64,000 bases of DNA from an uncultured Verrucomicrobiae bacterium (lineage in GTDB: Bacteria > Verrucomicrobiota > Verrucomicrobiia > Limisphaerales > UBA11358), in assembly GCA_963762585.1 (NCBI GenBank), contig CAVXLF010000023.1, positions 219,515-283,514 on the forward strand. The letters are read 5' to 3'. A model generated the notes under the pieces. It saw only the letters and a program-made list of their open reading frames with translations, was not told the DNA's origin and ran no database searches. Position 1 is the first letter of the stretch. Each line of letters begins with the position of its first letter. Below are positions 31,132 to 59,656 of this stretch, one piece after another. Made by a program: the position numbers and the translations under genes.

Positions 31132-33474
31132 ATGACAAGAGCGCCCGCCTGCGTGGCCGTAGCCAGCGTTACGTGCATGCCACCTGAAACCAACCACGGT
31201 TCGCGTGAATCCGTGCCGGTCAGCACTCCGGCGCGGCGAAGGCCTGCCCTCTTCCTGCTCGTTTTTTTTGCCGCCCTCTTTCCCGTCATCGTCCGGGCGC
31301 AACCAGAGCAGCAGTGGGTGGTGGACGGGCTTGACCAGGTCATTCCGGGCGCGCCGACAGGCGGGGTGACCTACGATCTGACCACGGGCGAGGCGACTGG
31401 CACGAACGTTTTTGTCCAATACGGCAACGCCACACTCATCGCGGACAACGCGACGGTGAACCAGAAGACGGGCGAGGTGGTGGCCGACGGCCACGTGCGC
31501 ATTGAGTCGGGGAACATGACCTGGGTCGGCGATCACATGCGGTATAACTTCCTGACGCACCAGATGCGGAGCGAGGAATTCCGCACGGGCAACCCGCCGG
31601 TGTTCGCGGCGGGCCTGGAATTGTCGGGCAACACCACCAACCAGACGTACAACGCGCGCCACGTTTACGTCACGACCGACGACGTGAGCGAACCGGCCAT
31701 CCGCGTGCACGCGAGCCGGATCAAGATTGTGCCCGGCAAATATGTCGAGATGTGGAATGCGGTGCTGTACATGGACGGCGTGCCAACGTTTTACTTTCCA
31801 TTTTACCGGCGGAACCTGGGGGAACACTCGAACAATTATACCTTTCTCCCCGGCTACCGCAGCGGCTACGGGCCGTACCTGCTGAACACCTACACGTGGT
31901 ATCTCGACGACCTGGCGGACGGCCGGTTGCATCTGGATTACCGGGAAAAGCGGGGCGTCGGCGCGGGACCGGACGTGAATCTGCACCTGGGCCGGTGGGG
32001 CGAATCCGCGTTCAAGTATTATTACGTGCATGACCAGGAACCAAACCAGAGCACCAACAATCTGCCGTTGTTTGGAAACATCCCCAACAACCGCCAGCGA
32101 TTGTACTTCACCTATCTGGCCACGCCGTTAACCAATTTGAACGTCAAGGCGCTGGTCAATTACCAAAGCGACCCGCTGGTGCTGCACGATTTTTCCGAGG
32201 GCGCCTACAGCCTGAATCCGCAGCCGAACACGTTCGCCGAGGTCAACCGCTACTGGGACAACTGGAGTCTTGATGCCGAAACGACCCCGCGCATCAATGA
32301 CTTCTTTGATCAAATCGAGCGGCTGCCGGACGTGAAACTCACCGGCTACCGTCAGCCGATTTTTGACACGCCGTTTTACTACGAAAGCGAGAGCTCCGCC
32401 GGGTACTACCGCAGGATGGTTGCCGACACCAATAATCTGGTGCCGGCGCTGCCCGATCCCGATTATTCCGGCACGCGGGCCGACACCTATCATCAATTGC
32501 TCCTGCCATGGACGTTTTTTGGGTGGTTGAACGTCACCCCGCACGCCGGCGGGCGGTTTACATATTACAGCCAGGAGGGCGGGCCGGCCGGGACCAACGG
32601 CGAAACCTATCGCAAGGTTTTTGACACCGGGGCCGAAGTGGCCTTCAAGGTTTCGAGCCTGTGGGCGGGCGCGACCAATTCCGTCCTGGACATTGACGGG
32701 CTGCGGCATGTCCTCGAGCCGTCGGTGAATTACGTTTTTGTGCCGCGCCCGAACACGCTGCCCCCGCAGTTGCCGCAGTTCGATTCCGTGTTGCCCAGCC
32801 TGCTGCTGTTGCCGGTCCAATTTCCCGGCTTCAACGACATTGACGCCATTGACCGTGAGAACGTGATCCGGTTTGGCCTGCGCAACACCCTGCAGACCAA
32901 ACGCGACGGCCAGGTCGAAAAGTTGCTCGACTGGAACCTGACGCTCGACTGGAATCTCCGGCCCAACGGGCAGACGAATGCCATTTTTTTGCAACCGCAG
33001 AAAACCTTCAACGACCTTTATTCCGATCTGACGTTCCAGCCGCGTTCCTGGATCACGTTTGAATCCCAACTGCGCTACGACATCAATGCCGGCGAGTTAA
33101 ACCTGGCGTTTCATCAACTCGCGTTCACGCCGAACGACCGCTGGAGCTGGGGCATCGGCCACTGGTATTTGCGCAGCGAATTTTTGGGCACCGGCGAAAA
33201 TTTCATCACCAGCACCATGTTTTTCCGCCTGAATGACAACTGGGGCCTGCGCACCACGCACGATTTCGACGCCCAAAGCGGCCGCCTGGAACAACAGTTT
33301 TACACCGTCTACCGGGACTTCCGGAGCTGGACGGGGGCCTTGACCTTTCGCGTGCAGGACAACGGCACCGGCCCGAAAGATTACACCGTCGCCTTCACCT
33401 TCTCGATCAAAGCGAATCCGCGCTATCGAATCGGCGGCGACACGGTCGAACCGGACCGGCTCGTCGGGGAATGA
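31132..33474 (+). CDS. lptD: LPS-assembly protein LptD-like
   Basis: N-terminal OstA-like jellyroll (L.AD...N..TGEVVADGHV), 'VPTFYFPF', long beta-barrel; start uncertain. Confidence 0.8.
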   Translation: MTRAPACVAVASVTCMPPETNHGSRESVPVSTPARRRPALFLLVFFAALFPVIVRAQPEQQWVVDGLDQVIPGAPTGGVTYDLTTGEATGTNVFVQYGNATLIADNATVNQKTGEVVADGHVRIESGNMTWVGDHMRYNFLTHQMRSEEFRTGNPPVFAAGLELSGNTTNQTYNARHVYVTTDDVSEPAIRVHASRIKIVPGKYVEMWNAVLYMDGVPTFYFPFYRRNLGEHSNNYTFLPGYRSGYGPYLLNTYTWYLDDLADGRLHLDYREKRGVGAGPDVNLHLGRWGESAFKYYYVHDQEPNQSTNNLPLFGNIPNNRQRLYFTYLATPLTNLNVKALVNYQSDPLVLHDFSEGAYSLNPQPNTFAEVNRYWDNWSLDAETTPRINDFFDQIERLPDVKLTGYRQPIFDTPFYYESESSAGYYRRMVADTNNLVPALPDPDYSGTRADTYHQLLLPWTFFGWLNVTPHAGGRFTYYSQEGGPAGTNGETYRKVFDTGAEVAFKVSSLWAGATNSVLDIDGLRHVLEPSVNYVFVPRPNTLPPQLPQFDSVLPSLLLLPVQFPGFNDIDAIDRENVIRFGLRNTLQTKRDGQVEKLLDWNLTLDWNLRPNGQTNAIFLQPQKTFNDLYSDLTFQPRSWITFESQLRYDINAGELNLAFHQLAFTPNDRWSWGIGHWYLRSEFLGTGENFITSTMFFRLNDNWGLRTTHDFDAQSGRLEQQFYTVYRDFRSWTGALTFRVQDNGTGPKDYTVAFTFSIKANPRYRIGGDTVEPDRLVGE

Positions 33475-51371: not shown

Positions 51372-52259
51372 TCAAAAAACCTTCATCGTGTCCAGCACGG
51401 CCTTCGTGCGCGGGACTTCATGCGTGCGGAACAGGTCGGTTTTCCCCAGCGCGGCCAGCACGGCAAAGAACGGTTCGGCACAGCGGACTTCGTCGCCGAA
51501 GAATTCAAACGCGTGGGGCAGGGCGTGGCAAATCGGAAATCCCAGGGTCCGCAATCGGAACGTGTTCAGAAAAACGGTCATTTGATGCCGGACCCGCACG
51601 GCGCTGTCCTGCAGGTTGCGGTAGTAAAAGCCCAGGCCGGGATCGAGCAGGATTTTCTCCACCCCGTGATGCCGCGCGATTTCAATCTGGCGCGAAAAAA
51701 ATTCGCGCATTGGTTCAATCGGGTCGGCGCTCAATTCGAAATCTTCGACTTCGCGGACATTTTTGCCCTGCACGTAGCAGAGGATGACGGCCGCATCGTG
51801 CGCTGCCACCATTTGGAAAATCTCGTCGCCGCCCTCCGTGCCGGTCAGGTTCAGGACGTTCGCGCCGGCTTCCAGGCACGCGCGCGTGACGGCGGGTTGG
51901 TACGTTTCCACGGAAACCAGAATGTTCGCGGCGCGCAAGGACTTGATGACCGGCAGCAATTGGGAATTCTGCGTGCTTTCGTCCACCCGCGCGGCGTCGG
52001 CGAGGGTGGATTCCGCGCCCACGTCCACGATGTCCGCGCCCTGGGCGTGCAGGATTTTGCCGCGCGCCACGGCGGCTTCCGCCGTCAGGCAGACACTTTC
52101 GCGATACCACGAATCGGGCGAAAGGTTGATGACGCCCATGATGCCGGGCTGGGAGTTGAAATCGAATGGTTTGCCGCCGATGGAGAATTCCCTGACCCGG
52201 GCGGGCGCGGCGGAACAATGCTTTTCCAGCAGTTCCGCAAGGTCTTCAAGTCTTAACAT
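51372..52259 (-). CDS. Dihydropteroate synthase-like pterin-binding protein (divergent)
   Basis: IMGVINLSPDS, DVGAEST, LDPGLGF, FRTHEV; lacks the STRPG Arg and the SRK motif. Confidence 0.75.
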   Translation of the reverse strand: MLRLEDLAELLEKHCSAAPARVREFSIGGKPFDFNSQPGIMGVINLSPDSWYRESVCLTAEAAVARGKILHAQGADIVDVGAESTLADAARVDESTQNSQLLPVIKSLRAANILVSVETYQPAVTRACLEAGANVLNLTGTEGGDEIFQMVAAHDAAVILCYVQGKNVREVEDFELSADPIEPMREFFSRQIEIARHHGVEKILLDPGLGFYYRNLQDSAVRVRHQMTVFLNTFRLRTLGFPICHALPHAFEFFGDEVRCAEPFFAVLAALGKTDLFRTHEVPRTKAVLDTMKVF

Positions 52260-52411
52260 GCCGGGAATCCTAGGGCGAAAATCGCAAATCGTAAATGGAA
52301 AGTGGCGTTCCCTCCCGAATTTCGCCGTTCGCGGCGGGGCAGAATTGTGATAGCCTGATGGGTGACGACTGGCAATAATGGGGCGGACAACCATTAACGA
52401 GAGGAAACCCG

Positions 52412-52684
52412 ATGGCCCAAGCAATCATGGATCCGGAAAAGGTGCGGCGGTTCGCGGAAGAACTGCAGCGTTTCAACAGCGACCTGGAAAATCGGATGAT
52501 TTTGTTGCAGGCCCGCTTCGGCGCGCTGGGGGACAGCTGGCAGGACCAGGAGCACGAGAAATTCAACGACGAATTCCGGCAGGCGATGAAGGCGTTGAAG
52601 AAATTCATTGAACTCTCGAAGGAACACACGCCATACCTGTTGAGAAAAGCCCAGCGCATCGAGGAATATCTCAACCAGCATTAA
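52412..52684 (+). CDS. WXG100-family (ESAT-6-like) protein
   Basis: 90 aa helical hairpin, 'MDPEKVRRFA..L', central LGDSWQD, no signal peptide. Confidence 0.8.
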   Translation: MAQAIMDPEKVRRFAEELQRFNSDLENRMILLQARFGALGDSWQDQEHEKFNDEFRQAMKALKKFIELSKEHTPYLLRKAQRIEEYLNQH

Positions 52685-52688
52685 CCGC

Positions 52689-53189
52689 ATGGCCGAACAC
52701 GCCCAGGTCAGTTCCGTCGAAGCGATTGAATCGTTCCGCGCCAGTCTGATTTTGTTTTTGAGCAAGGTGCGCCCGACGCTGGAAGAGGTGAGCGACGAGG
52801 TGCTGCGCCTGCAGTACTGGCTCCAGAACGACCAGCGCCGGCACTGGCAAAACGAGATGCGCCGGCGGGGCTTGAAACTGGAGGAAGCCCGGCGGGAGAT
52901 GTTCAACACCGCGCTTTCCCACCTGCAGGAGGCAACGGCATTGCAACACATGGCGGTGCAACGGGCGCAACGCGCCATCCGGGAGGCGGAAGAGAAGCTC
53001 GAGACCGTGAAACAATGGGAACGGGCCCTGGAAGACCGCACCACGCCGTTGATCAAACAGGTGGAGGAACTCCATGGGTTTCTCATCCTGGACATGGGGC
53101 GGGCGGTCACCCAACTGGTTCAAATCATCAAAACGCTGGAGGCTTACGCCAAGACCGGCAAAGCCGGCCGGGAAGGGGCGCCGTCATGA
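52689..53189 (+). CDS. All-helical coiled-coil protein (WXG100-like partner)
   Basis: 166 aa, heptad-rich, central W; packed between two WXG-like genes. Confidence 0.7.
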   Translation: MAEHAQVSSVEAIESFRASLILFLSKVRPTLEEVSDEVLRLQYWLQNDQRRHWQNEMRRRGLKLEEARREMFNTALSHLQEATALQHMAVQRAQRAIREAEEKLETVKQWERALEDRTTPLIKQVEELHGFLILDMGRAVTQLVQIIKTLEAYAKTGKAGREGAPS

Positions 53190-53398
53190 ACCTGAGCGGG
53201 AGCAAAAGCCGGCTGGTGGGAAGTGCCCGGGAACTTTCAATGAAATGGAAGGAAACCAAAAACTACTGGCGGGACGGAAAAAGCCAGGAGTTTGAGCACC
53301 GATATCTGGACGAGCTTTTCGTCCGCGTGGACAAGACGGTTGCCGTCATTGAGAAGCTGGATGATATTTTAAAAAAAGTCAGGAGTGACTGTGAATAG
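53186..53398 (+). CDS. Short WXG100-like protein
   Basis: 70 aa, W.ETK.YWRD..SQEF motif parallel to LGDSWQDQEHEKF; ATGA overlap. Confidence 0.68.
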   Translation: MNLSGSKSRLVGSARELSMKWKETKNYWRDGKSQEFEHRYLDELFVRVDKTVAVIEKLDDILKKVRSDCE

Positions 53399-56300
53399 GA
53401 ATCTGGGCGTCAATGAAATGCTGGCGTTATTGGACGCGCTCAAGGGCGCGGTCGAGGACTTCGCCGCGCGCGAGGAGAGGTTGAATCGCGATTTTCAAAC
53501 CCGGTCGGCGGCGGAACTCAACACCTTTGAAGCCGCCAGCCAGCTCCGGCAGTCCAGACTCGCCGGGGAACTGTCCGCGGCCGAGGCGGCTTTTGAAACG
53601 GAAAAAAATGCGCGCACTGCCCGATTCGAACGGCGCAAGGTACGGATCAACCGGGCGCACAGTGTGTTGAGCCGGCGGGTGTTGGATGAAGTCGGCGGGC
53701 AGGAAGGAAATCTCCGGCAGAAAGCCCGGAAAAACCTGGCGGAGGCGGAGCGTCAGCGGGATGTGGAACTGGCAGATGCCGCCGTCGCTTTTGGCGATTT
53801 ACAGAAAAAATTGGACGAAAGCAGCGAAGTGTTCGCCGGGCTGGAAAAGAGCGCGCGGACGGCATTTCGCGGTTACGGCATATTCCGAAGACTGCTCGGC
53901 CGCCAGCCGCCCGGGCCGGAGCTGGAGTTTTCGCTGGATGAACCCCGGTTGTTTGAGGAGTTGCAAAGCCTGGAATCCAACATCCGCGGGGATTTGGATC
54001 AATTCCAAAAAATACTGCTCCCGCGAATATTCAAGTTCCTCCCGGTTTCACTGGTGGTTTTGCTGTTGCTGGGCGCGGTTGCGGCGGTTCCGGTGCTTCA
54101 GCATTTTGGCCGGCACCCGGTTACCTGGCTGGAAACCGGCCCGGTCGCGCTGTTGCTGGCGGTGGTTTTGATTTTCTACCTCCAGGGACGGGGCGCCGTG
54201 GTGCCCGCCGCCGCGGCCATTGCCGGTCAACTGGGAAAGGCGCGCCGGCGGCTCGACGCCTGCTCGCAAAAAAACGCAGAGCATTATCAGCAGGAACAGG
54301 CACGGATTCAGGCCGGGTTCGATGCCACCACCCGCAATCTGAATCAGGAATGGAAACAGACAGTGAGGCAGATTGTGAGCACGCGCGGCGATCGGCCGAT
54401 GCAGGTGGATGAAAAAGCCCTTCGGGCCGCGCAGAAAAGCGAGCAATACTTCCGGACCGGCCGCGAACAGATTGAGCGCCGGCACGCGGAAAAGGTTGCC
54501 AGCCTGCAGGCGGAAGCCGGGGCGCAGGCCGGCCGGCTGGCCGGGGTTCATGCCGGGAAAATGGCCGATTACCAAAAACAGCAGCAAACCCGGTGGGAAA
54601 CGCTGGAGTCGGAATGGAAAAGCAAAATCGAACCGCTGTATGCGGCCATTCACTCGGCCAATGCCGCGGCGGACCAGCTTTTTCCCGGGTGGGAGGCGCC
54701 CTCCTGGAAGACGTGGACACCGCCGCAGGAATTTAAGCACGCCGCGCGGTTTGGCCGCCTCGAAGTGGATCTGGCGACGCTCGCTGAAAAGATGCCCCAG
54801 GACCAGCGCCTGGCGCTGCCCGGGCCGGCCAGTTTCAACCTGCCCCTGGCGCTGGCGTATCCGCTCCAGGGTTCCATCCTGTTTGAGACCGGCAAGGCTG
54901 GCGGCAGCGAGGCCGTTGCCGCCATCAACAACATCATCTTCCGGCTGCTTTCCACGACGCCCCCCGGCAAGCTGACCTTCACCATTTTTGACCCGGTCGG
55001 CCTCGGCCAGAGTTTTGCCGCGTTGATGCATCTGGCCGATTACGAGGAAAGCTACATCGACAGCCGCATCTGGACGCAGACCGCGCAGTTTGAGGAAAAG
55101 CTCGCGGAGCTGAACGAGCACATGGAAAAAGTCATCCAGATGTATCTGCGCAACGAGTATGCCACGATTTCCGAATACAACGCCGAGGCCGGCACCATCG
55201 CCGAAAAATATCATTTCCTCGTCATCGCGTCATTTCCGGTGAACTTCAGCGAGACCGCCGCGCGGCGGCTCCGGAACATCGCGGCCAGCGGCGCGCGCTG
55301 CGGCGTTTACACGCTCGTTCAATGGGATCAGCGGCAGGCCATGCCGCAGGATTTCGTCCCGGATGAACTTCAAAAAAACAGCGTCTGCCTGACGCACACC
55401 GAAGGCGGATTTCAACTGTCCGGCCGGCGCGCGCCGGGAACCAGACTGTTTTTCGATCCACCGCCACCATCCGAGACCGCCACCCATTTTCTTCATCAAC
55501 TCGGGCAGAGCGGCAAGGATTCCAACCGGGTCGAGGTGCCCTTTGAACAGGTGGTGCCGGCGGATGCCGATTATTGGAAGGAAGACACGACGGAAGAACT
55601 TCGCGTGCCCATTGGCCGTTCCGGCGCCACCAAGCTGCAATACCTTGCCATCGGCAAGGCCACGCGCCAGCACGGCTTGATTGCCGGCAAGACCGGTTCG
55701 GGTAAATCCACCCTGTTTCACGTCATCATTACCAACCTCGCGTTGTGGTGCAGTCCTGACCAGGTTGAATTTTATCTCGTGGACTTTAAGAAAGGCGTGG
55801 AATTCAAGTGCTACGCCAACCGCCGGCTGCCGCATGCGAAAGTTGTCGCCATCGAAAGCGACCGCGCCTTTGGCCTGAGCGTGCTCGAACGCGTGGATGC
55901 GGAACTGCGCCGCCGTGGCGATTTGTTCCGCAAGCTGGGGGCGCAGGATCTGGCCGGCTACAAGCGGGCGGGTGGGACCGAACCGTTGCCCCGGTCGCTT
56001 TTGATCATTGACGAATTTCAGGAATTTTTCGTGGAGGAAGACCGCGTTTCCCAGGGCGCGGCTGTTTTGCTGGACCGCATCATCCGGCAGGGCCGCGCGT
56101 TTGGCATACACGTGCTGCTCGGCTCGCAAACCCTGGGCGGCGCCTACACCCTGGCCCGGGCCACCATTGGCCAGATGGTCATCCGCATTGCGCTGCAGTG
56201 TAATGAGGCTGATGCCTACCTGATCATGGACCAGGACAACCCCGCGCCGCGCCTGCTTTCCCGGCCCGGCGAAGGCATTTACAACGACACGGCCGGTTCG

Positions 56301-57296
56301 ATTGAAGGCAACAGCCCGTTTCAAACCGTATGGTTGCCGGACCATGAGCGCGATGGTTACCTGGCAAAAATTCGAGACCGCGCCGACGTAACCCGGTATC
56401 CGGGCCCGATTGTGTTTGAAGGCAACGCGCCGGCGGATGTGCTGGAGAACCTGTTGTTGCGCGCGGTGCTCTCGTCTCCGACCCTAAAACCGGCGGAGCA
56501 GGCACGCGTCTGGCTGGGCGCGCCCAATTCCATCAAGGGACCAACGGAAGCCGTTTTCCAGAGACAAAGCGGCAGCAACCTGCTCATCGTGGGGCAGAGC
56601 GAGGAACGCACGCTGACGCTCCTGGCGGTGGCCCTCGTCGCGCTGGCCGCGCAATATCCGCCGGGAAGCGCATGTTTCATCGTGCTCGACAGCACGCCGC
56701 CCGGCCTGCCGCAACGCGAGTTTTTGCAGCGGGTCATTCAGGCCGTTCCCCACGAAGTAACGCAGGTCAACAACAGCAATCTCGCCGAAACCATGACCGC
56801 TCTGGCGGAGGACTTGAAACGTCGGACCGATGATGGAGAGGCAAAATCGCCGGAAACCTTCATTCTGGTCCAGGGGTTGCAAAATTTCAAAAAACTCAGG
56901 CAGGAGGACGAATTCAGCTTTTCCTCCGGTGACGCCGGGACCGCGCCCAATCCTGCCGCCGCGCTCCTCAATCTGGTCAGTGACGGTCCGGGACGAGGCT
57001 TTCATGTCATCGTTGCCTGCGATACTTACACCAACGTGACCCGCTTTCTGGGGCGGAAGGCCTTGAGCGAATTTGAAATGCGCGTGCTTTTCCAGATGAG
57101 CGCCGGCGATTCCGCCAGCCTGGTTGATACCCCGGACGCCGCCACGCTCGGGCTGCATCGTGCCCTCTTCTACAACGACCGGGAAGGCTACCTCGAAACC
57201 TTCCGCCCTTACGCGCGGCCGGGCAATGAATGGGTTGAGGAAGTCGCGCAAAACCTCGCGCGCCAGCGCGCGGCCGGGAGACCGAAGAAATCTTGA
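53385..57296 (+). CDS. FtsK/SpoIIIE-family ATPase, EccC/EssC-like
   Basis: Coiled coil, 2 TM, coiled coil, three FtsK-like modules; GKTGSGKS, YLVDFKKG, LIIDEFQ, GRAFGIH in the middle one. Confidence 0.88.
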   Translation: MTVNRNLGVNEMLALLDALKGAVEDFAAREERLNRDFQTRSAAELNTFEAASQLRQSRLAGELSAAEAAFETEKNARTARFERRKVRINRAHSVLSRRVLDEVGGQEGNLRQKARKNLAEAERQRDVELADAAVAFGDLQKKLDESSEVFAGLEKSARTAFRGYGIFRRLLGRQPPGPELEFSLDEPRLFEELQSLESNIRGDLDQFQKILLPRIFKFLPVSLVVLLLLGAVAAVPVLQHFGRHPVTWLETGPVALLLAVVLIFYLQGRGAVVPAAAAIAGQLGKARRRLDACSQKNAEHYQQEQARIQAGFDATTRNLNQEWKQTVRQIVSTRGDRPMQVDEKALRAAQKSEQYFRTGREQIERRHAEKVASLQAEAGAQAGRLAGVHAGKMADYQKQQQTRWETLESEWKSKIEPLYAAIHSANAAADQLFPGWEAPSWKTWTPPQEFKHAARFGRLEVDLATLAEKMPQDQRLALPGPASFNLPLALAYPLQGSILFETGKAGGSEAVAAINNIIFRLLSTTPPGKLTFTIFDPVGLGQSFAALMHLADYEESYIDSRIWTQTAQFEEKLAELNEHMEKVIQMYLRNEYATISEYNAEAGTIAEKYHFLVIASFPVNFSETAARRLRNIAASGARCGVYTLVQWDQRQAMPQDFVPDELQKNSVCLTHTEGGFQLSGRRAPGTRLFFDPPPPSETATHFLHQLGQSGKDSNRVEVPFEQVVPADADYWKEDTTEELRVPIGRSGATKLQYLAIGKATRQHGLIAGKTGSGKSTLFHVIITNLALWCSPDQVEFYLVDFKKGVEFKCYANRRLPHAKVVAIESDRAFGLSVLERVDAELRRRGDLFRKLGAQDLAGYKRAGGTEPLPRSLLIIDEFQEFFVEEDRVSQGAAVLLDRIIRQGRAFGIHVLLGSQTLGGAYTLARATIGQMVIRIALQCNEADAYLIMDQDNPAPRLLSRPGEGIYNDTAGSIEGNSPFQTVWLPDHERDGYLAKIRDRADVTRYPGPIVFEGNAPADVLENLLLRAVLSSPTLKPAEQARVWLGAPNSIKGPTEAVFQRQSGSNLLIVGQSEERTLTLLAVALVALAAQYPPGSACFIVLDSTPPGLPQREFLQRVIQAVPHEVTQVNNSNLAETMTALAEDLKRRTDDGEAKSPETFILVQGLQNFKKLRQEDEFSFSSGDAGTAPNPAAALLNLVSDGPGRGFHVIVACDTYTNVTRFLGRKALSEFEMRVLFQMSAGDSASLVDTPDAATLGLHRALFYNDREGYLETFRPYARPGNEWVEEVAQNLARQRAAGRPKKS

Positions 57297-57673: not shown

Positions 57674-57750
57674 TGGCGCGCCCGCCGCGATTCGAACGCG
57701 GGACCACCTGCTTAGAAGGCAGATGCTCTATCCAACTGAGCTACGGGCGC
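57674..57750 (-). tRNA. tRNA-Arg(TCT)
   Basis: Reverse complement GCGCCCGTAGCTCAGTTGGATAGAGCA-TCTGC-CTTCTAA-GCAGG..GTTCGAATC..GGGCGCGCCA. Confidence 0.96.
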
Positions 57751-58116: not shown

Positions 58117-59656
58117 ATGTACACCTCCTTAAAAACCCCGTTTCGCAACCCATTTGTAATACCCGCAACCCTGTTTTGGCTGTTGCCGGTCTGCGCCATT
58201 TTTTTTGCCCGGTGCCAGGCACAGCAACTTTCACTTTTGTCCGGGCCCGCCGATCAGTCGCAGATGGCGTGGACTTCGGGGCCTGCCGATGCCAGCCTGG
58301 GCAAGCTGGCCGATATTAAAATTCCCAAGGGCTATCGTTTTACGGATGCGACCGGGGCCGGGGCTCTGCTTGCCAAAATGAACAATCCAGTTCCCCAAGG
58401 ACTGGTGGGCATTCTCGCTCCCGAGTCAGGGCAATGGTGGGTCGTTCTGGAATATAAGGACATCGGTTATGTGAAGAACGCGGACAAAGGTGAAATTGAT
58501 GCCGCCGCAATTCTTAAAACCATCTCCAATCACGCCAAACGTCAGAATGAGGAGCGGAGCCTTCACGGCTTGCCGCTGATTTCCTCTGTGGATTGGAAAC
58601 TTTCGCCGGTGTTCAATGCCAGGACGTATACTGTGGAATGGGCGGTTCTGGCCAAAACCCAAACCGCGGGGTGATCAATCACACCATGCGTCTGCTCGGT
58701 CGGCAAGGCGTGCTGGATGCCACGGCGGTGGAACCCTATCAGGCCGGGCAGTCTGCCGCCAATTTGGTTCCGTTGCAGGACTTGATGAAAAACACCGCGT
58801 TCAAATCAGGACAGCGCTATACGGATTATCAGAAGGGTGACAAAGTTTCCGATATTGGCCTGGCCGGGCTCATTGCCGGCGAGGATGATTCCGCAGATGC
58901 GGAAAAAGATGACGCTGCCACTTCGGGAAAAAGCGCGGGGATTTGGGGATGGTATGTCCTGGCCGGCGTTGTTGCCGGAGGGGGAGTGCTGCTGTTTCTC
59001 GGAGCCGTTCAGCAACGCCGCAAACCGCGGCACGTCCTCCCCGCCAGTCCCGTGGAGAATGGAACCAGCAATGAGAATGAACCCGCTCAGCGAACCCGCA
59101 ACTTTGCCGGCTGCTTCACTGTGCCGGGCCGTGGTGGCGGATCAGGTACTGAAATCTGATGACGTCAAGCCGGTTGAAGTGAAACCCATTGGCGAAAGAC
59201 CCCAGGTGGCCATTGCCACCAATGGCTCCAGCAAACATCGGCCTTCCCGCCGTCGCCGGAAAATCTTTGATTATCACCGGTTTTATGTGGATACGGTGAT
59301 GAAACTTTCTTCCAGCGGCTATACGGCGGAAGTTCCAGCGGCTGATGAGCATGCCAATGGCCACGCACGGCCACTCCAACGGCCACGCCAATGGCCATTC
59401 AAACGGAAATGGGCACACCAATGGCCACTCCAATGGTTCAGCAACCGAAGGACAGTCACCATCGTATGCGGTCATGAACCAGGCCATTGCCCAGGCACAC
59501 ATGGATTTGATCGCCAATCAGAAGGAACTCATTGAGGAGCAAAAACATTTGCTGATCCAACAGGCCAAGCTGATTGAGGAGAAAAGCAAGTTAATCGCTG
59601 AAAAAAGCCAGCTTCTGGACCGTCAAACTGAACTGTTCGAGCGGGACATTTTGTAA
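58117..59656 (+). pseudogene. DUF2167-domain membrane protein with NGH-repeat/coiled-coil tail, three apparent frameshifts
   Basis: GPADASLG..IPKGYRF, IGYVK, RLLGRQG, GQRYTDY..GDKV..GLAGLI spread over successive frames (shifts near 58668, 59100, 59365); may be intact in vivo. Confidence 0.65.

Follow-up and report, generated by a model that had tools for sequence, protein, structure and literature searches.

Organization of the four-gene cassette

A 64,000-nucleotide (nt) stretch of DNA from an uncultured Verrucomicrobiae bacterium (GenBank assembly GCA_963762585.1, contig CAVXLF010000023.1, positions 219,515 to 283,514 of the forward strand; hereafter the window, to whose positions all coordinates refer) was found to carry a cassette of four genes, g1 to g4, encoding a WXG100-family protein, two further small helical proteins, and a membrane-anchored ATPase related to EccC and EssC of type VII secretion systems (T7SS). 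A preliminary description of this DNA, made from the sequence alone, had reported four tightly spaced or overlapping genes for proteins of 90, 166, 70, and 1303 amino acid residues (aa), and these open reading frames (ORFs) were confirmed as described. The spacing between g1 and g2 was 4 nt, g2 and g3 overlapped in an ATGA sequence, and g3 and g4 overlapped by 14 nt, or by 8 nt when GTG at position 53391 was taken as the start of g4. Since this GTG lies 6 nt downstream of an AGGAG sequence and the database copy of the protein has 1301 aa, it is the likelier start codon. The GC content of the cassette (0.59–0.61) fell within the range of the window (0.50–0.61), in agreement with the host-like composition noted earlier. 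The genes and the parts of g4 were assigned as follows.

52412–52684, + strand: g1, WXG100-family protein of 90 aa; HP0062-type helical hairpin with W-Q-D instead of W-x-G
52689–53189, + strand: g2, long helical hairpin of no known family, 166 aa; variable Pro/Ala-rich tail
53186–53398, + strand: g3, two-helix protein of 70 aa with W-R-D at the turn; predicted g2 binder
53385–57296, + strand: g4, membrane-anchored EccC/EssC-like ATPase of 1303 aa; likely start GTG 53391
54039–54176, + strand: g4 transmembrane hairpin, residues 219–237 and 246–264 with a short loop between them, from a Kyte-Doolittle scan
54792–55544, + strand: g4 module A, approximately residues 470–720; FtsK-like fold with a degenerate Walker A motif
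55557–56276, + strand: g4 module B, residues 725–964; the only intact ATPase module
55686–55709, + strand: g4 Walker A motif GKTGSGKS, residues 768–775 in module B; Walker B residues DE at 876–877
56352–57284, + strand: g4 module C, approximately residues 990–1300; third FtsK-like fold, with a degenerate Walker A motif (GQSEER)

Relationship of the ATPase to EccC and EssC

The search with hidden Markov models that the preliminary description had proposed gave passing matches of g1 to Pfam WXG100 and of g4 to FtsK_SpoIIIE (PF01580; 114.5 bits). In NCBIfam, the best scores of g4 were those with EccCa (117 bits; cut-off, 509), EccCb (92.5; 347), and EssC (91.8; 778), well above that with FtsK (26; 1566), and all four were below the cut-offs. 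When the middle module was compared by sequence with chains of solved structure, EccC (4nh0) scored 105 bits, EccC5 102, YukB 73, and FtsK 36. An AlphaFold2 model of residues 460–1303, built on a 24-row alignment (predicted local distance difference test score [pLDDT], 82; predicted template modelling score, 0.63), contained three tandem P-loop folds. The best Foldseek match of this model was D1–D3 of T. curvata EccC (E = 1.9e-31 over 892 columns), to which all three modules aligned; two-module fragments of EccC and EssC followed, with module C matching their C-terminal modules, and FtsK motors matched as single modules at E-values of 6e-15 and weaker. The proposed kinship of the ATPase with EccC and EssC was thus supported by the sequence scores relative to FtsK and by D1–D3 of EccC as the best fold match.

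The Walker A and Walker B motifs of module B were invariant in 24 of 24 aligned sequences, and this module aligned by sequence to D1 of EccC and EssC. All 30 locus proteins, and all 69 representatives from the cluster search described below, had a single canonical Walker A motif (GxxGxGK[ST]), which lay in the middle module. Module C gave a weak match, 17 bits, to a profile of module B. The earlier label of an EccC/EssC-like ATPase therefore held insofar as EccC was the best match, but not for the module plan, in which g4 has three P-loop modules, the middle one alone being intact, against four in EccC and EssC.

The Kyte-Doolittle scan that located the hairpin of g4 also recovered the known membrane helices of EssC, EccC, and FtsK used as controls. 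The position of the hairpin (residues 219–264) matched that in Listeria EssC (248–290), and a cytoplasmic N-terminal domain of approximately 215 residues preceded it. Because the hairpin consists of two helices, the N-terminal 215 residues and all of the protein past residue 265 should lie on the ATP side of the membrane. A helical stalk precedes the three modules; the name coiled coil for the stalk and the N-terminal 215 residues is a putative one, drawn from composition and from descriptions in the literature. At least one membrane segment (one or two) was predicted at the same place in 29 of the 30 locus ATPases and in 68 of the 69 near-full-length representatives.

In a maximum-likelihood tree of the active modules (28 rows, with several long branches), the g4 family and anchorless relatives from Helicobacter, Caballeronia, and the verrucomicrobial locus L049 formed one clade (support, 80/94), and the FtsK references formed a clade of their own without the g4 family (92/87). 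The phylogeny against EccC, EssC, and FtsK that the preliminary description had called for hence placed g4 not within the FtsK clade, yet outside the EccC and EssC D1 groups. Judged from this tree, g4 does not group with DNA translocases and appears to be a lineage of its own, neither EccC nor EssC.

Properties of the small proteins

The score of g1 with Pfam WXG100 was 40.4 bits (cut-off, 27.3), and 17 of 17 orthologues also matched this family; with NCBIfam WXG100_ESAT6 it scored 27 bits, below the cut-off of 45. The chains of solved structure nearest to the g1 profile were those of H. pylori HP0062 (3fx7 and 2gts; E = 1.5e-9), ahead of EsxB and EsxA, and the turn of HP0062 carries W-R-D, so that a W-x-D motif is common to both proteins. 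HP0062 is a homodimer. Eight residues of g1 (W43, D45, Q46, E47, H48, F51, E54, and F55) were invariant in 17 sequences, as was the C-terminal pattern H-x-P-x-L-x-RKA-xx-I-xx-YL-x-Q. Judged by its profile matches, g1 is a bona fide WXG100 protein. The W-x-D motifs that had been read in g1 (WQD) and g3 (WRD) were present and invariant in the orthologues (17/17 for g1 and 19/19 for g3), and the statement that the three small proteins lack signal peptides agreed with the Kyte-Doolittle scan, which showed no hydrophobic segment in any of them. An EAD11-like match of g1, seen in 8 of 17 members with a best E-value of 0.005 and under the cut-off, was taken as helical or compositional likeness.

No Pfam or NCBIfam family was found for g2. 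Its AlphaFold2 model (pLDDT 81.9) had helices at residues 7–77 and 80–157; W44, W110, and Y153 were invariant, and the tail beyond approximately residue 155 differed in length among orthologues. The g2 profile found no relative among solved chains (best E = 0.04, coiled-coil noise; an LXG chain appeared at E = 1.2), the model had no Foldseek match at E ≤ 0.001, and VIA-align returned generic long hairpins only, with a best Z of 11.5 against the value of about 13 advised for helical models. A Prominin-like match, given by 13 of 18 members (best E = 5e-5, under the cut-off), was likewise put down to helical or compositional likeness. No longer proteins with a g2-like domain, such as fused toxins, were found, which is weak evidence.

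There was neither a family match for g3 itself nor a solved relative of its profile. Two of 19 orthologues matched WXG100_2 (best E = 5.9e-5), and W21, W28, D30, F36, and E70 were invariant in 19 sequences. Profile–profile comparisons of g1 with g3, g1 with g2, and g3 with g2 gave nothing significant (E = 0.03–0.1, probability below 2%); the alignment of g1 with g3, itself not significant, placed the two W-x-D motifs in register. The earlier view of g3 as WXG-like thus had the two orthologue matches in its favor, a weak support, but neither a family match of g3 itself nor the comparison with the g1 profile. The invariant C-terminus of g3 (…DCE; window 53380–53398) is coded by the same bases as the ribosome-binding site and start codon of g4, and because of this double use its conservation may partly reflect a constraint at the nucleotide level. 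Mean column identity was 85% for g1, 64% for the C-terminal part of the ATPase, 59% for g3, and 54% for g2.

In a three-chain complex model, the score of g3 against g1 plus g2 was 0.83, and the best of three controls scored 0.24; 58 of 80 solved complexes attained the mark applied to this score, as did 2 of 110 mismatched pairs. Contacts agreed to at least 96% among the runs, and the partner pLDDT was at least 90. Both helices of g3 packed on the two ends of the g2 hairpin (g2 residues 2–49 and 103–146), and g1 was contacted by g3 only at its last residues. The model supports binding of g3 to g2, not to g1, and since g3 packs on g2 and barely on g1, the predicted units are g2–g3 and g1 alone. 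A heterodimer of the two WXG-like proteins g1 and g3, which the preliminary description had implied, did not emerge from this model.

Distribution and conservation of the cassette

Strong matches to the whole ATPase were found in 24 of 40 sampled relatives (16/24 in the genus and 8/16 in other families of the order), and the N-terminal 720 residues of g4 matched in 12 of 400 other genomes of an even sample of the phylum from which the host genome was excluded. A motif scan of species-level genomes for g1 gave at least 582 relatives among at least 599 pattern matches, and almost all of the best 80 of these relatives carried the label Verrucomicrobiota, Limisphaerales, subdivision 3, or Pedosphaera. 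When 1.84 billion cluster representatives (50% identity) were searched with the N-terminal 720 residues of g4, 2545 matched at E ≤ 1e-3, 1849 at E ≤ 1e-10, and 958 at E ≤ 1e-30. Among the best 150 representatives, 69 were near full length (at least 1150 aa); two or more membrane helices were predicted in 59 of them, one in 9, and none in 1. A distant representative, P0246 (1307 aa, 29% identity), comes from an isolate of the Planctomycetales that is in culture; it is the checked case among ESM Atlas rows that pointed to Planctomycetota and otherwise served as leads. Within Limisphaerales the cassette is conserved; across Verrucomicrobiota it is patchy, and it reaches Planctomycetota. The membrane hairpin is a family trait in bacteria of the Planctomycetota–Verrucomicrobiota (PVC) group, and the proteobacterial plasmid relatives are without it.

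Ten of the 11 near loci and 13 of the 19 extended loci kept the order g1-g2-g3-g4. In the wider phylum sample, 6 of 12 loci had the four genes in the same order; a seventh had g2 and g3, with the position of g1 past the edge of the retrieved locus sequence, and most of the others ended short upstream. This order recurs far more often than expected by chance. In two extended loci the g1-g2-g3 trio was parted from the ATPase by 7.5 kb and 1.9 kb. Three others had a lone ATPase (genomes G011, G209, and G329), and g1 was found elsewhere in all three genomes. In G011 it adjoined g2 and g3, whereas in G209 and G329 the gene beside it was no more than a weak g3-like match. Among 23 loci searched, flanking genes were common only to the two closest relatives (L009 and L010).

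The 7.5-kb insert between the trio and the ATPase, at locus L033 (G022:C15, 11824–19339), contained ORFs of 719, 172, 126, and 255 aa. Copies of g1 with 78–93% identity also occurred on contigs (L058, L060, L078, L083, L088, L093, L133, and others) labelled Sulfopaludibacter, Limnocylindrales, Acidiferrales, Methylomirabilota, Bifidobacteriaceae, or Gammaproteobacteria; the labels probably reflect wrong naming or binning of metagenome bins and not gene transfer.

Relatives of different make-up

The verrucomicrobial locus L049 (G200:C2, 5462–11462) comprised a VWA gene, a g1-like gene, a gene for a 436-aa helical protein, ORFs of 110 and 82 aa, and a gene for a 1059-aa ATPase without a membrane helix; its g1-like protein showed 39% identity with g1 and also carried W-Q-D. 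A Caballeronia plasmid had a layout that matched L049, followed by CARF, VWA, PP2C phosphatase, Ser/Thr kinase, and AAA genes. On a Helicobacter plasmid, a g1-like gene was followed by genes for a 340-aa protein, an SMI1/KNR4 protein, a 77-aa protein, and an anchorless ATPase. The 340-aa protein ends in a WHH/colicin-DNase nuclease and the SMI1/KNR4 protein stands next to it, a pattern known from exported polymorphic toxins; a predicted toxin-immunity pair in the slot of g2 points to export in this lineage. Over modules A and B, the identity to g4 was 32% for the ATPase of the Caballeronia plasmid and 27% for that of the Helicobacter plasmid. No likeness was detectable between g2 or g3 and the proteins in the same slots of the two plasmids; the parallel is one of position only.

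A Rhodococcus conjugative plasmid (NZ_CP126457.1; L139, 3728–13824) encoded a 1322-aa ATPase with 43% identity in the active module. Three ORFs (314, 73, and 87 aa) came next, the 87-aa one with a weak WXG100 match (E = 0.005), and TerD genes after them.

Genomic context

The neighbours of the cassette were housekeeping genes: cox genes, SCO1, DUF420, a methyltransferase, a divergently transcribed gene for a pterin-binding enzyme, tRNA-Arg, and DUF2167. No toxin-immunity pair adjoined the cassette, as the preliminary description had observed. It had also noted LptD in the same window, which we located at approximately 32134–33243, and an Omp85 protein was encoded on another contig; from these two proteins the host was judged to be a diderm. 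The host genome assembly is 2.5 Mb long and 79% complete, and the names carried by near-identical proteins and contigs put the host in the order Limisphaerales of Verrucomicrobiota. One further feature was recorded upstream of the cassette.

52253–52282, + strand: weak sigma-70-like promoter match, TTAACA-18-GAAAAT, 9 of 12 positions, approximately 130 nt upstream of g1

Four sigma-70-like sites were found in the region against 1.4 expected, and this one is a consensus match only. Downstream of g4, at a distance of approximately 380 nt, a tRNA-Arg(TCT) gene occupied 57674–57750 on the − strand, and such a gene also stood by the cassette in the two closest relatives. The DUF2167 gene (58117–59159) appeared to be split into two overlapping frames, 58117–58674 covering profile positions 3–134 and 58593–59159 positions 136–209, which reflects either a frameshift or an assembly error. 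An ORF of 103 aa at 59345–59656 (+ strand) had a His/Asn/Gly-rich repeat (HGHSNGHANGHSNGNGHTNGHSNG) followed by a helical tail and matched no Pfam family.

Comparison with known systems

Operons of a solo WXG100 gene with a three-module YueA/EssC-like ATPase have been called "mobile versions of T7SS" in a table footnote that names verrucomicrobia and planctomycetes among the carriers (Zhang et al. 2012, Biol Direct 7:18, Table footnote 6), and a "WXG100 secretion system" of H. pylori built on HP0062 and HP0066 is named in a pan-genome paper (PMC4978471). In their treatment of such modules, Bell et al. (2024, eLife 13:RP94800) describe an anchorless form beside CoCoNuT (Type III-A) systems, which has a coiled coil at the N-terminus and a pair of WXG100 proteins, W-x-G being absent from one; they place such modules within predicted defence systems, consider a different mechanism likely without membrane helices, and quote Anantharaman et al. 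(2012) as having suggested a stand-alone secretion system. WXG100 proteins in Verrucomicrobia were reported by Sutcliffe (2011), according to a paper citing that work, and the account of type VII subtypes by Garrett et al. (2024) widens them only inside Gram-positive phyla. Our literature search found no experimental study of WXG100 proteins or T7SS in Verrucomicrobia, Verrucomicrobiota, or Planctomycetes. The claim of a distinct T7-like subtype, noted in other phyla only by bioinformatics, thus stood as to the missing experiments, but its kind had already been in print (Zhang et al. 2012; Bell et al. 2024; HP0062/HP0066). The present analysis adds the model of g2–g3 pairing, the finding that g1 is the most conserved of the four genes, and the PVC-wide hairpin.

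The cassette resembled the type of Zhang et al. (2012) and of HP0062/HP0066 in that HP0062 was nearest to g1, with a W-x-D turn, and in the three ATPase modules with the middle one intact. It differed from it in three respects: g4 has a conserved two-helix anchor, whereas the Helicobacter and Caballeronia plasmid ATPases have none; the slot between g1 and g4 holds the toxin-less 166-aa g2 and its predicted partner g3; and the context is chromosomal, among housekeeping genes, and not evidently mobile, with synteny in the two closest relatives and no phage or viral relatives of g1. With the EssC-like form of CoCoNuT loci (Bell et al. 2024), the cassette shares three modules of which the central one is predicted to be active, a long helical N-terminus replacing FHA domains, and two small WXG100-like proteins, one without W-x-G, with a coiled-coil protein between them. 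In contrast, the ATPases of that form lack membrane helices, and its VWA genes, McrBC-type loci, and D-ExK nuclease on the coiled-coil protein have no counterpart in the cassette. Locus L049 is a verrucomicrobial example of that type.

The motor of the T7SSb of Bacillota is built like g4, from a cytoplasmic N-terminal domain, a hairpin near residues 220–290, and stacked FtsK-like modules, with a WXG100 gene adjoining. Unlike it, g4 has three modules in place of a DUF plus D1–D3 and a coiled coil in place of FHA domains, no YukC/EssB or YukD was found, and the host is a diderm. Small helical Lap proteins of T7SSb bind LXG domains, which recalls the small partner on a longer helical protein predicted here. 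As for the T7SSa (ESX) of Actinomycetota, its EccC was the best solved match of g4 by both sequence and fold, whereas EccB and EccD were not found, Y-x-x-x-D/E was missing, and the g4 active module did not join the EccC D1 group; the short g3 hairpin on the longer g2 recalls the PE-PPE pairs of this system. From FtsK/SpoIIIE DNA translocases, g4 differed in having no gamma-domain match among Pfam matches at E ≤ 1 and in the separate FtsK clade.

Function of the cassette

It is close to certain that the cassette is a chromosomal member of the family in which a solo WXG100 gene accompanies a three-module EssC/YueA-like ATPase, in the membrane-anchored form typical of PVC bacteria. As its likeliest function we tentatively infer the export of helical proteins over the inner membrane. 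The ATPase would form a ring in the manner of FtsK-family motors, and the two-helix hairpin would anchor it in the inner membrane; its N-terminal and stalk regions and its three P-loop modules would all lie in the cytoplasm. The middle module alone would hydrolyse ATP, and the two degenerate modules would act as a scaffold or as docking sites. The cargo would consist of folded helical bundles, a g1 dimer of the HP0062 type and a g2–g3 heterodimer, which would be moved over the inner membrane into the periplasm by a minimal type VII-like exporter without EccB/D/E or EssA/B-type partners. Four observations speak for this export: the motor is laid out like EssC, its hairpin is strongly conserved, it has a WXG100 partner, and a relative has toxin-immunity cargo.

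Several results weighed against it. EccB, EccD, YukC/EssB, and YukD were not found in the 79%-complete genome by searches that gave matches in control genomes, EccE, MycP, EssA, and EsaA not being searched; the earlier statement that EccB/D/E, MycP, EssA/B, and EsaA are missing thus stands for EccB, EccD, and YukC/EssB. As no partner membrane proteins were found, the channel would have to be made of two helices per ATPase subunit. There was no candidate for passage through the outer membrane, and no further gene family recurred in more than 4 of 20 extended loci. Inspection of the alignments of g1, g2, and g3 gave no W-x-G and no Y-x-x-x-D/E export signal after the last helix. In 16 of 16 four-gene loci, g1 was the most conserved of the four genes, which is more readily expected of a structural or regulatory component than of an effector that evolves fast. 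The ATPases of L049 and of the Caballeronia and Helicobacter plasmids had no membrane helix in the Kyte-Doolittle scan, so that the core function shared with these anchorless relatives may not need a membrane. In the tree, the branching order of the active module of g4, outside the EccC and EssC D1 groups, relative to FtsK and D1 was not settled, and the pass of the complex model may owe something to solved bundles of the WXG100 type. A stronger form of the export reading, which we consider possible but somewhat improbable, is that the PVC form is a self-sufficient translocase, in which a ring with a two-helix collar would export the g1 dimer and g2–g3 with no channel subunits in a diderm host.

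The principal alternative is a non-secretory conflict or stress module, in which the ATPase would be a membrane-tethered cytoplasmic ring for sensing or remodelling and the helical proteins would be its regulators or effectors; they might, for instance, be membrane-active hairpins set free by phage attack or another trigger. Anchorless WXG100/EssC-like modules are embedded in CoCoNuT and TerY-P defence loci, and the cassette would be their counterpart. It is consistent with the plasmid ATPases of 27–32% identity over modules A and B, which are without membrane helices and of which that of Caballeronia stands beside VWA, CARF, PP2C, kinase, and AAA genes; with the setting in predicted defence systems, and the likely different mechanism without helices, given by Bell et al. 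(2024) in their account of such modules; with the TerD genes adjoining the Rhodococcus plasmid relative; with the high conservation of g1; and with the patchy occurrence in the phylum (12 of the 400 genomes sampled). However, the neighbours of the cassette are housekeeping genes, and no VWA, kinase, phosphatase, CARF, or McrBC gene was found near it; PADLOC gave generic ATPase-domain matches only (SspH, mad8, and HerA); phage records and viral contigs contained no relative of g1; and the membrane hairpin is strongly conserved. The cassette is moreover common in the order (24/40) and syntenic in the two closest relatives, which suggests a resident function more than a defence island. On this evidence we regard a conflict module as unlikely, though worth weighing.

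A DNA-handling motor of a mobile element, that is, a coupling or segregation ATPase like FtsK, TraB, or TcpA with the small proteins as accessories, is very improbable: the FtsK_SpoIIIE domain, matches by sequence and fold that include FtsK and the pCW3 coupling protein TcpA, the tRNA-Arg gene downstream of g4, and the term mobile applied to such operons in the footnote of Zhang et al. (2012) and by Bell et al. (2024) are in keeping with it, but FtsK scored far below EccC with the middle module (36 against 105 bits) and far below its NCBIfam cut-off, its clade excluded the g4 family, no gamma domain was matched, the host genome has a separate FtsK gene on another contig (C1), integrase, relaxase, and conjugation genes were missing nearby, and three modules with one active are the plan of EccC/EssC and not of FtsK.

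Nearly all work on type VII secretion concerns Actinomycetota and Bacillota, in which the motor depends on several membrane proteins as partners. The present family is very large and occurs in diderm PVC bacteria with a motor and three helical proteins only. If these proteins are exported, the cassette would give the smallest sufficient set of parts and a route to the origin of the system, and it would raise the question of what the cargo does in the periplasm. Were the PVC form a self-sufficient translocase, it would be the simplest working relative of type VII systems and a model for their ancestral core, with the g2 slot as the point where toxin domains are plugged in elsewhere. If the proteins are not exported, annotations of the kind "WXG100 family type VII secretion target" in Gram-negative genomes would mislead, and the role of WXG100/EssC-like pairs would be a different one, probably related to conflict. 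Both outcomes are open to experiment, since a homologue of the membrane-anchored ATPase is encoded by at least one planctomycete in culture.

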